From Octopus vulgaris (lineage: Eukaryota), in contig OX597814.1 of assembly GCA_951406725.2 (NCBI GenBank), forward strand, positions 102,858,001 through 102,922,000: 64,000 nt of DNA, in the 5' to 3' direction. This document shows, in pieces, positions 55,810 through 64,000 of this stretch. A program made the translations under genes and the position numbers. Numbering within the stretch: the first letter of the stretch is position 1; each line of letters begins with the position of its first letter. The notes beneath the pieces are model-generated. The model was not told the DNA's origin. It was given only the letters and a program-made list of their open reading frames with translations, and made no database searches.

Positions 55810-56016
55810 CTGGCCCCTGTGCCGGTGACATGTAAAAAGCACCCACTACAGTCTTGGAGTGGTTGGTGTTAGGAAAGGCATCTAGCTGTAGAAACTTTGC
55901 CAGATCAGATTGGAGCCTGGTGAAGCCTCCTGGCTTGCCAGTCCTCAGTCAAACCATCCAGCCCATGCCAGCATGGAAAGCAGATGTTAAGCCATGATGA
56001 TGATGATGATGATGAT
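55810..56016 (+). repeat. RTE 3'-UTR-derived repeat just upstream of a kinase exon
   Basis: aggaaaggcatctagctgtagaaac...catgccagcatggaaagcagatgttaa followed by (gat)n. Confidence 0.85.
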
Positions 56017-56127
56017 ATATTCAAATCTCTTTCCTAATCTTTTTCGTCAACTCTAACAAGAAATGTCTTTAAAACATACTATTCCATAAGACTGACATTT
56101 TTTTTACCTATTTTTCTCTCTTTTCAG

Positions 56128-56304
56128 GAAAACTCGACACTTAAACATCTTATTATTTATGGGTTACACCATTGAACCTCAGCTTCAGATTGTCACTCAG
56201 TGGTGTGAAGGGTCAAGTCTTTACAAACGTTTACATGTAGAAGAAACCAAGTATGATATGTCTCAGTTAGTTGAAATAGGTCGTCAAACTTCACAAGGCA
56301 TGGA
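56128..56304 (+). CDS. BRAF: RAF kinase exon: dimer interface and hinge
   Basis: tttcag| [58 protein letters not shown](D) |gtaagt. 177 nt, phase 2-2. Confidence 0.97.
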
Positions 56305-57617
56305 GTAAGTTGGCACTTTGTTTCTCCTTTTAATACAAATTTTATTTAGCCATTTCAAAGAAAGAACTGCTTCTGCTACATAGTGGTTAAGTATAACAAA
56401 AGTAAATGAAATTGTCAATATGTTTATGTTATAGGGGGATAATATATATATATTACATACAAGAGATTTGTATTTGGTTAAATTTGAAAGACTTGTTAGC
56501 ATTTTGAGTTCTTTTGAAGAGGAAATAGTTCAGTGGAGATTGTACTTGAATAAGCAAACTGATAGTTGTATCAAATATTTAAGAATTCCCACTACATGCT
56601 TACTACAAGAACAGTTGTGAATTGTCCATAAATGAATCTGAAGGTTTTGTGCATTAAATTAAGTACAATTTTTGTTTTAAAAATTATTATTTTCATTCTG
56701 TAAATTAAGAAAGTTAATTTCAAGTGTTTCTTTTTACCTTTTTTTTACTTAAACCTGCAGCTGAGCAAATAAGGAATTCTACAGGATCAGGAATAGCAAA
56801 CCAATATTTTTTTGACTCAAAAGATCTTATAGACATTATAAGTCCCAGAAAATATCAACTGGTGGGACATAAACCACATATCAACAACAGCAAGTGATAG
56901 ATATGTGGTTGATGTCCCACCAGTTGATATTTTTTGTTTGTTTCATTTTTTTAAACTTTTTTTCTTTTTCTTTTTACAATGCCTAGTATTATTTAGTGGA
57001 GTGTCTTTCATACATGATCTTGTTTGTACCTGGATACCAGTGATGTTACATGGGGATCAACCTTTACCCATCCTCCCTGATTCACCTGTCTTCACAATCT
57101 CTTGGACGTTACTTTGGATATACCCTGGCTCCTTATCATCATCTTATCTCTCCTCCTGCCCATACACCATTCTACCTACCCATGTATTACATGGGGGTAA
57201 CACTGCTTTTCCTCCTGTTCGGCCCTACCCCTATCTTCTCTCTCTCTCTCATGTTCTCACTTTCCCTCTTTTAACCCCCTTCCCTAACATTGTCTCTGTT
57301 ATTGTCTTTCCTACTACCCTCTTTCAACAATAAAACTGTCTAACCAATAAGAACTTTTTGGACCCTGACAAACAGCCAGCACCTGCTGGTATGGCAGACA
57401 GACTGACCAGTCCATCACTGGCTCCACCTACTTAACCTTGTCCGCTCGTCCCACCCCATCCCATTACCATTACCACCTTGTCCATCCCTTCCACACAAAA
57501 CCCTGATATTACTCTTATCCTCCATTACCATCCTCTTGCAAGAAATTCGTTCCATCAATCATGGATGTTCTCTTTTGCTTTGCAAGTTACAAGGCAAACC
57601 CCGACAGTGCTCATGTA

Positions 57618-57950
57618 ATCATCATCACCATTGTTTAACGTCCATTTTCCATGCTAGCATGGGTTGGACGGTTCGACTGGGGTCTGGGAAGCCAGGAGGC
57701 TGCACCAGGCTCCAGTCTGATCTGGCAGTGTTTCTACAGCTGGATACCCTCCCTAATGCCAACCACTCTGTGAGTGTAGTGGGTGCTTTTTATGTGTCAC
57801 TAGCACAGGGGCCAGAGGAGGCTGGCAAATGGCCACGATCGGTTGGTGCTTTTTACATGTCACTGGCACGGACTCCAGTCAAGGCAACGCTGGCATCGGC
57901 CACGTTCGGATGGTGCTTTTTACGTGCCACCGGCACAGGTATCACAACTA
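57618..57950 (-). repeat. RTE 3'-UTR-derived repeat (inverted relative to 55810)
   Basis: catcat..tttaacgtccattttccatgctagcatgggttggacgg..ctacagctggataccctccctaatgcc. Confidence 0.85.
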
Positions 57951-58474
57951 CAAAAAAAAAAAAAGACTAGTACACTCTAACATGGTCAGTGTTAGGAAGG
58001 GCATACAGCTGTTGAAAAGAAACCCCAAAAAGGACATAAGTGAAACATACTCCTCCTGTTAAGAACTGATTTGGGCTATAATAGGCACATAACCCATGAG
58101 AAGTAGATACACTGATGATAATGTGTGGGTTTTCCCCAGAATGTTTTCACATTGACAGCTTTGAATGGTAGTGATGTTTATATCCAGCAGCATAGGGTAG
58201 TTTGACATGTGAAGACCTGGAATAATCTGTGTTTTAAATAACTTACTTGAAAACAAGGGTTGATATCTAGAAAGGCAACACAGAATGCAGAATACTATCA
58301 CAAGAAATCTCATCCAGTCCGTGTAGCAGAGAAACAACAGACATAAAAATGATGATGATAACAATGACAATGGTGGCAACAACACTTTTTGTCAGGAACC
58401 CTTTTTCTTGAAAGAATGATGTGAAAATTAGTTAAACATGTGTTATATAATTTTTCATTTTCTTTTTTTTACAG

Positions 58475-58521
58475 TTATTTACATGCAAAGTTTATCATTC
58501 ATAGAGATTTGAAGTCCAACA
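58475..58521 (+). CDS. BRAF: RAF kinase exon: catalytic loop HRDLKSN
   Basis: ttacag| YLHAKFIIHRDLKSN |gtatccttt. 47 nt, phase 2-1. Confidence 0.97.
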
Positions 58522-58630
58522 GTATCCTTTTAAAATTTCATTGTAAATTTAGATATTTTAAACATTTGTGTAATGATTTTGTTGAGAAAACTAATATTAG
58601 AGTTGTTTTGTTTAATTTTATTTTTAAAAT

Positions 58631-58631
<1 letters not shown>

Positions 58632-58684
<53 letters not shown>

Positions 58685-59417
58685 CAACTTGTGTGTCTGT
58701 GTGTGTATCTGTGTGTTTAACTTCCCGGCACATCTCCTAGCCAACAAATCGTAGAACCACCAAAAATGGGTCATTAAAGTTTAGGCGAATGAAAATTGAA
58801 CTGCGCTATTTCTGTTCCGAAATTCATCTTGCAAGTGCAAAAATCGATAATGTGTTTGTTTAGGCCTTATCTCATGCATTGAATAGTAAACTTTACTCAG
58901 TCAGCTGTTTGACGTGAACTGTGTTCACCATGCGTGCAAGCATGTGTAAATTGCATGAAAAATAAAAAAAATCAAGATATAAAAACGAATCACCATAAAC
59001 GTTGTAGAAATTCGGCAAAGAAATGAATTTTCGGGATGTAGCCTGGAGGGATTTTTTCGTATTAATATATATATATATATATATATATTTCATCATATAT
59101 ATATATATGTATGTATGTATATATATATACATATATATATACATATGAGAGTATGATAGAAGAAGGCTAACTCTTCCTTCTGTAGAAGAAAAGATTCAAA
59201 TCGGACCATGTTAACACCAAAAATTATTTACATCAAAAAGATGCCTTTTTTCTATGAAAATCCCTATTTTTTATGATGTTTTGACTGCTGTGTCGCCATT
59301 TTTCAGTGTATTTCACTTAAAGAGAATAACAAACTACATACTGCCAAATTTTTACTTTTCAAAAAATTCCAATTCTAAAGGGTCTAAACAAATCGCAACG
59401 CCGGGCAATACTGCTAG
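58632..59417 (+). mobile_element. Non-autonomous Helitron-like element
   Basis: 5' (AT)n-aaaattcaacttgtgtgtc shared with the 24368 copy. 3' end gcaacgccgggcaatactgCTAG|t. Confidence 0.78.
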
Positions 59418-59638
59418 TATATAATAATATGTTATGAGAGGTAATGGTGTCAATAAGAACCAAAGGTGTCAGGTAATGCTAAGTGCTATGGACAGACTAT
59501 AGTTAAGCTCCAGGTTCGGTGATTATGCGATTGTGGAGTCCAACGTAGGTCATATATCAACATGTGTATGTATAAAAAAATTTTCAGAATGTGATAAAAA
59601 TCCAAGACTGTGAAAGATTTTAGAATATTTATAAAGAG

Positions 59639-59686
59639 GTCTTACAGCTGTTTCCGGGATATTTTATATATCCCTTAATCGGAGAC
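59639..59686 (-). ncRNA. Minimal type-I hammerhead-like motif (core variant CCGAUUA)
   Basis: Minus strand reads gtct-CCGATTA-a-gggatat-ataaa-atatccc-g-GAAAC-AGCT-GTA-agac. Confidence 0.6.
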
Positions 59687-60859
59687 AGTGTGAAAAAATG
59701 GTTAAGCAATAGTTAAATTAGATAAGATATGATATAGTGAGTGAAGTGGAGGAATGAAAATAGACGTGAAATATGCGGGGATAATGCATCTGTAGATCCA
59801 TTATTTATGCAGAATGGTATACATTTAAGATTCCAGTACCTTGTGACTAAGTTCCAATAGTATTTAAAATTGGTCATTCCAAGTATAGAGTTTGTAAAGG
59901 GCGTTATTGAATTGAGGGTTGGGAATGTATTTATAAGGTCAAATAAAAAACAGCAAGAAACAAAGAAAAGAAAAAAGAAAAGTGAAGAGAGAGATAATAA
60001 AGAGATGAAGAGAGGGTAAGTGTACTGGTTAGTGGTCAGTCAAGATAAATTGATAGAAAGAAAGATATACCTGCATGTGCAGGGCGATAATACATACAGA
60101 TACACGTATATATGGGTATACATATATACATGTACATTATGAGTACAAGTTGTATGTGTAGATGTTAATATGTATAAATATCTATATAAATATATATATG
60201 CATGTTTAATATATGCATCTGTATACATCTTCACGTATATATTTTCTTCTACTACTAAGCACTGACCTGTCCAACCAACCTAATCTATATTTCCAAATTC
60301 CCCTCACTTAGGCTCTATCACTACATATCTGACACTCCTTCACTCTTTATACTCTCATACCTTTCTCTGTCATCCATCACCCCCTCATTCCTTCTATCTG
60401 ACACTCCTTTAGTCTTTACCCTATCATCTTTTTACACTCTCATTTCTTTATCTCTCTATCACCCTCACATTCCTGTTCCTTCTATCAATTTATCTTGACT
60501 GACCACTAACCAGTACACTTTCCCTCTTTTCATCTCTTCATTATCTCTCTCCCCACTTTTTTCTTTTTTTTTTCTTCTCTTTGTTCCTCTCTTCCTGTTT
60601 TCAATTTGACCTTATAAATACATTCCCAACTTTTAAGTCACTTTAAATAAAATCCTCTATTCAATAACACCATGTACAAACTCTATATTTGGAACTTACT
60701 CACAAGGTACTGGAATCTTATATGTATACCATTCTGCCTAAATAATGGATCTACAGATGCAATGTCCTTACATATCTCACGTCTATTTTCATTCCTCCAC
60801 TTCACTCTCTATATCATATCTTATCTAAAATAACTACTGCTTAACCATTCTCTCACGCT

Positions 60860-60907
60860 GTCTCCAATGAAGGGATATATAAAATATCCCGGAAACAGCT
60901 GTAAGAC
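60860..60907 (+). ncRNA. Minimal type-I hammerhead-like motif (core variant CCAAUGA)
   Basis: gtct-CCAATGA-a-gggatat-ataaa-atatccc-g-GAAAC-AGCT-GTA-agac. Stem I is gtct/agac, stem II is a perfect 7 bp, and the stem III loop is palindromic. Confidence 0.6.
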
Positions 60908-61149
60908 CTTTTTATAAATGTTCTAGAATCTTTCAAAGCTTTGGATTTTTATCTCATTCTGAAAATTTATATATATATATATATATATATACACAGGATT
61001 TGATCTTCTCAAAAGACAAAAGGAAAAACAGAAACTAGATGTTAAAACCATTTACCATCAGTATTCAATGCCTTCACAAACTATTTCATCAAGCCAATCT
61101 TGACATGGAATGGGAGCAAGATTATCTATTCTCAGCTTACCATTGAGTC

Positions 61150-62708
61150 ATTCACACTGTTTGGTATGCCATTACAAATGGGCCACCCTTTCTGGCTCCA
61201 GTGTTTCTTTCAAGCTCTGCTGTCCCACATGTACTGCTGACTAAAGAGGAAATTGACCATTTTCATGTCCACACAAATGGTCCAGTTGTGCTTGTGATGT
61301 TCGAGTATGTCAACAACTATTTTTTCCATGTCATTATGTTCTTCTCACAAATACACAACTGACCAACTGGACTGCCCCATAAACATTGCCATTGTGCAAG
61401 TGGAACATGCTTGAGGCTGCACTGAAAGGTATCCAGAAATAATTGCCACTCTGTTGGACTATATGTGGTAACACCTAAATTGCCTGAGAAATCCTGGGAT
61501 ATCATGGCAGTTAACAAACTGCTTGTCTTCTTAAAAAAGATCACAAAAGTCTGGTCCCACTTTCAGAAATATGAATCTTTTGCCAAGTACTCTTTTATTT
61601 ATTTATTTACTTGTTTCACACATTTGACTGCAGCCATGCTGGAGCACTGTCTTTAATAGAAGATATCAACCCCAGGACTTTGTAAACCTAGCACTTGGTC
61701 TCTTTTGCCGAACTGTTAAGTTATGGGAACATAAACACACCAACATCGGTTGTCAAGCGATGGTGGGGTGGGACAAACACAGACACACAAACATACATTA
61801 TATATATACAACAGGCTTCTTTCAGTTTCCATCTGGAGGGTACTGAATCATGCACAAAGTCATATTCTGTTTGGATAACTGCTGAGGGACTGATTACAAT
61901 GGTATCAGATGAGGAATCTTTGGATTCTAAAACCGTTTCTTGAAGCTCATTATCAAAATCTTCATGTTTCTCCTGTTCACTCCCTTTGTCTTCAGATGAG
62001 GCAAAACCATTAAAAACGGGAACTGGCAGTTCCTCATAGTGTGGAATAGGTTGAATTGTTGAGCGAATACAAAGATAAAAGATCTGATGCTAATTTTTTC
62101 TTGCCAAAACGTTCATGGTGATCAAGCAGAAACAGCAGTCTGTATATGTTGTCCTTGTGTTTTCACCAAACCATAGAAACTCCAAAAGCAGGCCCTTTCA
62201 TTTTCATTCTGTCTAGTTATGAACCATTTCCTCACAATTGTGACCCACAATATGAAGAGCCCATTTCTGGTCTTGGTTTTTCGGGAGAACTTGAGAGTAA
62301 GCTTTATAGGGCACCGCTCCTCACAATGTTGTACTGTGCCTTTGATGAAGTGCAAAGCAGCAGCAGCCACATACATAACAGTGTATTTACACATGTCTAC
62401 TTAAAGAAACTATTTAAGATTTGAAACAAGAGAAACAGCTGTTGTTTTTGTGTAAATCAGATAAATCTCTAAAATCCAAAATTAACTTTAAAAATAAAGA
62501 AAATATATCTTTAAAAAAAGAAATTGCCTAATTAAGGTTAAGGTACATCTAAAAAGCAATGTGTTCCTTTTTTTTTTTTGTGAAAATAAGTTTCAAATTG
62601 CATATTGAGGGAAACCTATTTCATATTTGAAATCAGCATTGACAAATGAATAGAATTAGTGGGAAAATTTCATGTAACAGAAAATATGAAGAAATTTGTT
62701 GCCCATTG
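61150..62708 (-). mobile_element. Decayed DNA transposon, Chapaev3 (CMC)-like, interrupted by a SINE tail (~61590-61835)
   Basis: Minus-strand remnants QDQKWALHIV, STIQPIPHYEELPVP, PTEWQLFLD..SLKHV and WDSRA..HW; terminus caatgggcaacaaa. Family named from remembered motifs. Confidence 0.6.
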
Positions 62709-63134
62709 TTATCTTTCTCCATATTAATCTGTGGTGCAAGTAACATGAATTATCTTTATCTCTTAATTGTGATACAGGTAACATGAATAAATTCTATGCC
62801 CCCTCTTCCCCATATAATGACAGTTGCTTTAGTGTTCATTGACTAACAAATCTGTTTTAATTGTAATGAGTCATGTTTAAGGTAGATGTTTCTAGAAGCT
62901 GATCTTATTAAAAATTTGTTGTATTCACTTCATGTTGGGATGGTTTAATTACAATCTGTCTAACCCGTTCTAACCTAAATAAATGTTTATAAAACCCATG
63001 GAAATATGTCTATGCTTCTAGGTGCTGCTTCAACTCTTGTCTATTAACTCAACAAACAATATTTTTAAAATTCATTTATTGATTAGATGTTAACACAAAA
63101 ACAAAATGATTTCCCTTAAATTATTGCTCTCCAG

Positions 63135-63253
63135 ATATATTTTTGACAGAAGACTTCACTGTCAAAATTGGTGACTTTGGTCTTGCAACTGTGAAAGCTC
63201 GATGGAGTGGATCCCATCAATTCCAACAGCCAACTGGTTCCATTCTGTGGATG
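63135..63253 (+). CDS. BRAF: RAF kinase exon: DFG and activation segment
   Basis: ctccag| (N)[39 protein letters not shown] |gtaaaa. 119 nt, equivalent to the human V600 exon. Confidence 0.98.
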
Positions 63254-63443
63254 GTAAAATTATTTTTTAATAAAATCTAATCAGTTAAACTTGATATCAT
63301 TTTGAAATTTGTTTCATATTTGCTTTGGGATTTAATTTGAGAATAACTACACTAGAAATACAAAAAATTAGAAAAACTTGTTAAATTATATATTTTTATT
63401 GAAAATATGTTGATGCTACTATAAATATTGGTGTTTCCTGCAG

Positions 63444-63575
63444 GCTCCTGAAGTAATAAGGATGAAAGATGACAACCCTTACACATTCCAATCTGATGTG
63501 TATGCGTATGGTATTGTCTGTTTTGAGTTGATGACCAGCTCACTGCCATATTCTCACATCAACAATAAGGACCAG
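63444..63575 (+). CDS. BRAF: RAF kinase exon: APE to alphaF/G
   Basis: ctgcag| [44 protein letters not shown] |gtaaga. 132 nt. Confidence 0.98.
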
Positions 63576-63810
63576 GTAAGAGAAAAGTTTTCAAACAATA
63601 TACAGAATATACATGTGCATTTTAAAGTCATTATCATTTCAGATTTCTTCAAATTATTGAACCTTTGCTTAAAAATATCTTCATTGCAGTATTGTTGAAC
63701 TATTTGTCCTCTCAATTACATTTAACTTCTTGTGGAAGCTATTTGTTGTACCAGCTTTACTATTAAAATATTCATAATTTTTGAAAAACTTCTCTCTCTC
63801 TCTCAATTAG

Positions 63811-63945
63811 ATCCTCTTCATGGTTGGTAAAGGCCATATACGACCTGACCCCAGTAAATCCAGATCAGATACACCCAAAGCTTTCAAACGTTTGATGATG
63901 GAGTGCTGTAAATACGATCGAAATGAAAGGCCTCTATTTCCACAG
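63811..63945 (+). CDS. BRAF: RAF kinase exon: C-lobe (the gene continues beyond the window)
   Basis: aattag| [45 protein letters not shown] |gtatgc. 135 nt. Confidence 0.97.
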
Positions 63946-64000
63946 GTATGCAAGGGAAAACTTTTAAATGTGGTAGTTAGGGTTAATGTATTAATCACAT

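Follow-up and report, generated by a model that had tools for sequence, protein, structure and literature searches.

An Insertion in a U12-Type Intron of a Raf Gene

The window, by which we mean the whole 64,000-nt stretch of Octopus vulgaris DNA that was analyzed, contains a B-Raf-like kinase gene on its plus strand. One of its introns (58522–63134) is of the U12 GT-AG type, with the donor GTATCCTTT and the branch site TTCCCTTAA. The exons on its two sides join in frame and read ...HRDLKSNNIFL..., as in Raf kinases; the one downstream has a B-Raf match at E = 1e-13. Inside this intron, two arms (59566/59578–60062 and 60476–60968/60979) are inverted copies of each other with 83.5% identity over 516 columns, gaps included, and are separated by 413 nt. 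A large inverted repeat in the U12 intron had been reported in an earlier reading based on the sequence alone (hereafter the sequence-only reading), and this repeat is real. Its outline had to be redrawn: the arms are inverted as described, but the presumed spacer is element sequence and the left copy is about 150 nt longer, reaching 59431.

The left copy (59431–60062, minus strand) corresponds to the 5′-truncated 3′ end, or pseudo-LTR, of a Penelope-like element (PLE) assigned below to the Hydra clade from its motifs. It carries a tail of about 150 nt (59431–59580, minus strand), found on this arm only. The right copy (60065–60968, plus strand) comprises the 5′-truncated 3′ UTR and the pseudo-LTR of the same element and ends, untailed, at the inner terminus. 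The former spacer (60065–60475, plus strand) is a part of the 3′ UTR held by the right copy only, and it is continuous with the arm in other copies. The sequence at the insertion site is a (TA)n run (60969–60991), and runs of TA or CT/TA also mark the ends of the copies of the family. No part of the element's ORF is present in the window insertion. Each copy harbors a hammerhead-like motif exactly where the sequence-only reading had located it. The left motif (59639–59686, minus strand) is antisense to the host gene and has the core CCGAUUA (59682–59676), with a G8>U change. The right motif (60860–60907, plus strand) is in the sense orientation and has the core CCAAUGA (60864–60870), with a G5>A change due to CpG decay; its predicted cut lies after 60903.

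Because the arm, the former spacer and the 170 nt on the left all recur in the genome as element sequence, we describe the locus as minus-strand 59431–60062 and plus-strand 60065–60968 placed head to head. Very probably, it results from a single old insertion of a Hydra-clade PLE as two 5′-truncated copies, each with a pseudo-LTR hammerhead that likely cut after GUA as a dimer in the parent element and is likely dead here. The locus itself is a fossil, ordinary in origin.

Other repeated or foldable sequences surround the insertion. A high-copy repeat of another kind (59160–59420), very deep in sequencing-run contigs, adjoins its left end. In the Raf intron upstream, an 86-nt near-perfect hairpin (56849–56934; stem of ~33 bp, −52.4 kcal/mol) resembles several miRNA models weakly, with scores below threshold, and is unmatched among the other loci compared; it is a candidate intronic miRNA or a small foldback remnant. 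An inverted pair of SINE-like sequences of 198 nt (55810–56007 and 57618–57815, 84% complementary) lies on either side of the exon near 56129–56305 and could pair across this exon in the pre-mRNA. DNA-like sequencing contigs of three organisms cover the repeat family, and one 113-nt contig from one of the three is identical to 59651–59763, which hints at a shared insertion.

The Repeat Family and Its Coding Region

We searched the genome (2.8 Gb in 227 contigs) with the parts of the insertion. The right arm gave 3332 candidates at first look and 46 matches scored at 86–100%, the former spacer (60065–60475) 1083 candidates and 52 matches, and the 170 nt left of 59578 gave 2662 candidates. In other copies, walking upstream leads into a GIY-YIG nuclease with a cysteine linker, then into a reverse transcriptase (RT). 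Copy L233, which aligns with both window arms at 72–76%, unites in a single stretch the RT, the linker, the nuclease, the 3′ UTR and a hammerhead with an intact CCGA core. The Penelope-like origin proposed in the sequence-only reading is thereby supported, and L233 is an intact-core copy linked to RT/GIY-YIG sequences of the kind for which it had proposed a search. Copies L122 and L124 have the same inverted layout as the window, joined to RT sequence. Copy L231 reaches the start of the ORF, with 48 nt between the end of its tail and the start codon; the spacing is the same in L042. A tail placed just before the ORF is the layout of a pseudo-LTR.

The single ORF for an RT with a C-terminal GIY-YIG domain is present but broken in L233, L234, and L231; in tblastn comparisons of broken-ORF copies with the intact relative L218, E values go down to 2e-89. 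Among the best 20 RT matches of the family, the longest open frame at the RT query is 336 aa and all frames are broken. No full-length unbroken or tandem family element was found among these 20 closest RT matches, for seven of which a long stretch of sequence was inspected. Intact frames of up to 1091 aa exist in relatives at 46–52% identity. The related PLE families L218, L219, and L220–L230 are young, with intact frames of 760–1091 aa and many Asn linkers. Three of them (L218, L219, and L226) have canonical CUGA hammerheads with a long stem II and the palindromes CGAUCG or CAAUUG; for several of L218–L230, a descriptor search found no hammerhead tied to the element. In the sister-family hammerheads L150, L155, L157, and L164, the same core bears a stem II about 25 nt longer. 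A Pfam search with five element proteins (RT and nuclease) returned no family.

Motif-Based Assignment to the Hydra Clade

The motifs of the family were set against the published definition of the Hydra clade, which comprises DKT, an RWK site, a CxCx5C linker, no CCHH, CxxC and CxH around conserved E and N residues, and (TA)n targets, as given in PMC8557442. In L231, DKT replaces DKG (SDKTGN). In L047, L056, L061, L065, and L233, the linker reads CNCxxxxxC (CxCx5C), CCHH is absent, and the nuclease has one Cys between VIY and YIG followed by CxxC..E..LN..E..CNH. A (TA)n target is found in the window and in most copies inspected. Near the N-terminus, one decayed family copy reads MRRK at the RWK site, where intact relatives have RWR and RWK. 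DKT, the linker and nuclease motifs and the TA targets point to a Hydra-clade PLE. The Neptune clade, which shares a C-terminal nuclease with a cysteine linker, was dropped as a candidate: its CX2-5CxxC linker and CCHH motif, as defined in PMC8557442, are both absent from the octopus family.

Beyond the C-terminal GIY-YIG, DKT, CxCx5C, the absence of CCHH, CxxC/CxH and the TA targets, the family shares with the Hydra-clade PLEs, as described by Craig et al. (2021; PMC8557442), an inverted truncated copy at the 5′ end and a hammerhead in the pseudo-LTR. The published set includes Hydra-1_Obim from Octopus bimaculoides (PMC8557442). Since the hammerhead sequence given for it there differs from that of the present family, the two families are distinct.

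Arrangement of the Copies and Proposed Mode of Insertion

For a survey of layouts, 88 loci were picked by the core pattern, 86 of which gave matches. Diverging pairs occur at 25 of the 86 loci (one of them included twice), and at the other 61 an arm has no diverging partner. The full tail is on a single arm in 22 of the 25 loci with diverging pairs, and is present twice in one complex locus. A same-direction pair of hammerheads was seen at only 1 of the 86 loci. An inverted truncated copy with a tail at one end is a signature of PLEs (PMC8557442, PMC11167929), which PMC11167929 attributes to reverse transcription that starts at two internal sites. In both papers the tail is 30–40 nt long, whereas it measures about 150 nt in the present family. 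We suggest that the element's protein would nick a TA run, and that reverse transcription would then begin at two internal sites separated by 150 nt, producing one tailed and one untailed copy.

Variants of the Hammerhead Core

An exact search of the genome with a 19-letter core pattern gave 2970 matches, and the reversed control gave none; the motif is therefore not due to chance. Adding the family's next letter to this pattern, exact 20-letter counts are 1150 for CCGA, 402 for CUGA, and 157 for CCAA. These counts bear out the ancestor CCGAUGA that had been deduced from the two window cores. Position 4 is C or U in all 146 aligned copies, and the CCGAUUA core of the minus-strand window copy is found in two of them. 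The CCAA cores and part of the CUGA cores are products of CpG decay. Another part of the CUGA cores is a real sub-lineage within family A (13 of the 15 copies with at least three of five marks), while the CUGA copies of subfamily A2 lack linked marks. A tree of 85 short segments nests this sub-lineage in family A (support 0.99), in a noisy data set with mislabelled duplicates and an unrooted clade. Sister family B (502 matches) has 86 CUGA, 12 CCGA, and 2 CUAA cores among the first 100 listed (hand count); family C (366 matches) has 66 CUGA, 29 CCGA, 3 CCAA, and 2 CUAA among the matches listed. As both families hold both letters, C4 and U4 occur across the clade.

The family majority carries C3, G5 A6 N7 G8 A9, G12 A13 A14, A15.1-U16.1, and H17, and departs from the strict hammerhead consensus because position 4 is C. 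Among 34 copies with an exact CCGA 5′ half (from 50 loci), seven keep an intact fold throughout. We considered pairing of position 4 with the extra letter before GAAA (C4-G in A1/A2, U4-A in B/C) as an off-switch, and rejected this idea because A3 and the CCGA copies of families B and C combine C4 with A. Rfam reported no hammerhead in 56000–64000 at E values up to 10, and none in five intact CCGA/CUGA loci; since intact motifs escape it too, the result for the window is uninformative.

Both window copies fall within the CCGA portion of subfamily A1, with 15 and 18 differences from its majority over 282 columns. They have lost G5 (G5>A, sense copy) and the C3-G8 pair (G8>U, antisense copy), and are probably inactive, as the sequence-only reading had supposed. 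That the two are disabled differently, as it had noted, calls for no special cause, as CpG decay yields CCAA in 157 copies. The two cores look like neutral decay: after insertion, the copies would have drifted to 5–6% from the subfamily majority, with CpG deamination as the source of G5>A and chance as that of G8>U.

Two other accounts of the window bear on these observations. The arms could be the terminal inverted repeats of a DNA transposon (a MITE or foldback element) that resemble hammerheads by chance, an outcome that the sequence-only reading had named as fatal to its proposal. Long inverted arms within a TA run would be expected of such an element. However, the arms nest as parts of a single linear unit with fixed 3′ ends and variable 5′ ends, they stand alone at the 61 loci mentioned above, their outer ends differ, so that no defined unit has equal inverted termini, and in other copies they lead into RT and GIY-YIG. 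We give this account virtually no chance, and the link of the arms to RT/nuclease sequence in L122, L124, and L233 refutes it. The sequence-only reading had further speculated that ADAR could edit A60866 to inosine in the duplex and so restore a G5-like base; a sense hammerhead revived in this way would cut the Raf pre-mRNA. Its structural premise stands: in the predicted fold of the pre-mRNA, 430 long-range pairs connect the arms, and A60866 is unpaired and faces C59680. Yet the duplex required by ADAR is also what buries the motif, and forcing stems I and II to form would cost 63.6 kcal/mol. An I-C pair would tighten this duplex further, and six more core adenosines sit in it. The second window copy is antisense and offers no dimer partner in cis. 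The A.C mismatch itself is what CpG decay in one arm would leave, as in the 157 CCAA copies. Inosine also lacks the 2-amino group of G5, a group probably needed for hammerhead activity. In four presumed RNA runs, contigs cover the repeat in short pieces only and no alternative letters are listed, which speaks neither for nor against editing. In the host pre-mRNA, the window copies would thus only pair into a long duplex; with the sense copy buried in it and lacking a dimer partner, rescue by editing is very improbable. We therefore retain a decayed PLE insertion as the reading of the locus.

Conservation, Folding, and Possible Activity of the CCGA Motif

We compared 27 positions of the motif (core, stem I, and stem III) with the flanks, using subfamily majorities. 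The underlying copies had been recognized by motif anchors, allowing up to 3 and 5 mismatches, a choice that biases the comparison toward conservation. Between A1 and A3, both CCGA, 0 of 27 motif positions and 26 of 181 flank positions differ (p = 0.03). Between A1 and A2, the values are 0 of 27 and 14 of 187 (p = 0.22, not significant). For A1 against family B they are 1 of 27 and 42 of 174 (p = 0.012), and for A1 against family C 1 of 27 and 57 of 152 (p = 0.0002). Two-sided covariation is scarce, the stems being more conserved than covarying. The pairing of stem II is kept through G.U changes and through self-complementary extensions, the latter in subfamily A3 and family C. Since core and stems stay constant while the flanks diverge, the motif was probably still under selection with C4.

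In folding predictions, the majority motif of the family forms stems I and II and the dimer stem III. For two molecules of the intact copy L008, the minimum-energy structure is a double hammerhead with an 8-bp stem III (−32.7 vs. 2 × −13.5 kcal/mol), in line with the minimal type I, dimer-type hammerhead suggested earlier. This predicted fold and the conservation lend support to catalysis by the CCGA motif but fall short of demonstrating it. In the mechanism that we propose, two hammerheads of a tandem transcript would pair via the palindrome CAGCUG into the 8-bp stem III and would cleave weakly after GUA, probably aided by the element's protein; C4 would be tolerated as a slower core, and the master elements would have retained it over a long period. 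We infer the tandem template of this dimer, as the same-direction pair is confined to 1 of 86 loci and no full-length element is among the closest 20. A viroid with the U4C change stays infectious with considerably lower activity in vitro (PMC3088659), a mutational scan recorded low activity when the CUGA turn carried a single change (PMC9901934), and the hammerhead of an anole PLE needed its protein (PMC11167929). In this last system, hammerhead mutants did not block insertion in vitro, and amplification alone is therefore no proof of catalysis.

How much the motif still does may be read in two further ways. It may have been noncatalytic already in the master elements, and have been kept as a structure for protein binding or folding or as a hitch-hiker. 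This would fit the dispensability of cleavage for insertion in vitro and the weak activity of CUGA-turn mutants (PMC11167929 and PMC9901934, respectively), as well as the CUGA cores of those young intact relatives, with ORFs of 800–1090 aa, in which the motif was found (L218, L219, and L226); the CUGA sub-lineage inside family A could be a selected reversion. Set against this, CCGA subfamilies whose flanks differ by up to 14% agree at every other catalytic position, in the palindrome and at the cut site, and position 4 takes only the two letters known from active ribozymes in all 146 aligned copies. We regard a noncatalytic motif as rather unlikely. The opposite reading takes a working U4C hammerhead to have been the standard ribozyme in a retroelement lineage of long duration. 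The masters of three related families would have switched between U and C at position 4, with C4 selected over thousands of copies. Core variants would then be missed systematically in PLEs, some of which are now called ribozyme-less, because published searches demand CUGANGA. We put this forward tentatively, as a real possibility that falls somewhat short of an even chance. Our own account remains a tolerated core that would cleave weakly as a dimer.

Comparison with Published Hammerheads

The octopus motif has close counterparts among Hydra-clade hammerheads. In File S2 of Craig et al. (2021; PMC8557442), 26 rows are of Hydra hammerheads. Of these, 12 share the A at the cut site, and in 15 the base of stem II is mismatched. 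The A.G mismatch that had been thought unusual is thus a letter variant of a known trait, which appears as U.U or U.C in the Hydra rows. The core is different: all 26 rows read CUGA, whereas the present family is CCGA in its majority. Likeness to the PLE hammerheads of Cervera and de la Peña (2014; PMC4209133) extends to type I with a short stem I and a 7-bp stem II, an extra letter after A9, a loop 3 that is palindromic (in Drosophila willistoni it is AGCU, together with A17), and pairs on opposite strands 100–700 bp apart that are presumed to act as dimers. In their Fig. S3, an extra letter before GAAA occurs in one motif only (shrimp), and none of 56 motifs has C4, the majority letter of the present family. 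These two lists came from CUGA-based descriptors, so C4 could hardly show in them.

As both the stem II base mismatch and U4C are already known, the octopus motif is a variant and not a new ribozyme family. Of the suggestion that it represents an undescribed variant family, one part survives: we found no retroelement family for which U4C has been reported in print as the prevailing core, although the survey of Lunse et al. (2017), reportedly a large one of PLE hammerhead variants, may list it. Descriptors fixed on CUGANGA undercount such hammerheads. The function of PLE hammerheads is called unclear in PMC8557442. Natural CCGA and CUGA copies with matching stems allow one to ask whether, and how fast, these hammerheads must cleave.

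CCGA is described as weakened but viable in viroid-like RNAs (PMC3088659 and PMC9608096), and bioRxiv 10.64898/2026.09.16.752053 records U4C for several circular RNAs. The octopus family has its core change in common with peach latent mosaic viroid and other viroid-like RNAs. Those RNAs are small and circular, with hammerheads of type III where the type is stated, whereas the present family is chromosomal, with a minimal, dimer-type predicted fold. The family matters modestly: a core reported so far from viroid-like RNAs here prevails in a chromosomal retroelement with more than a thousand copies.
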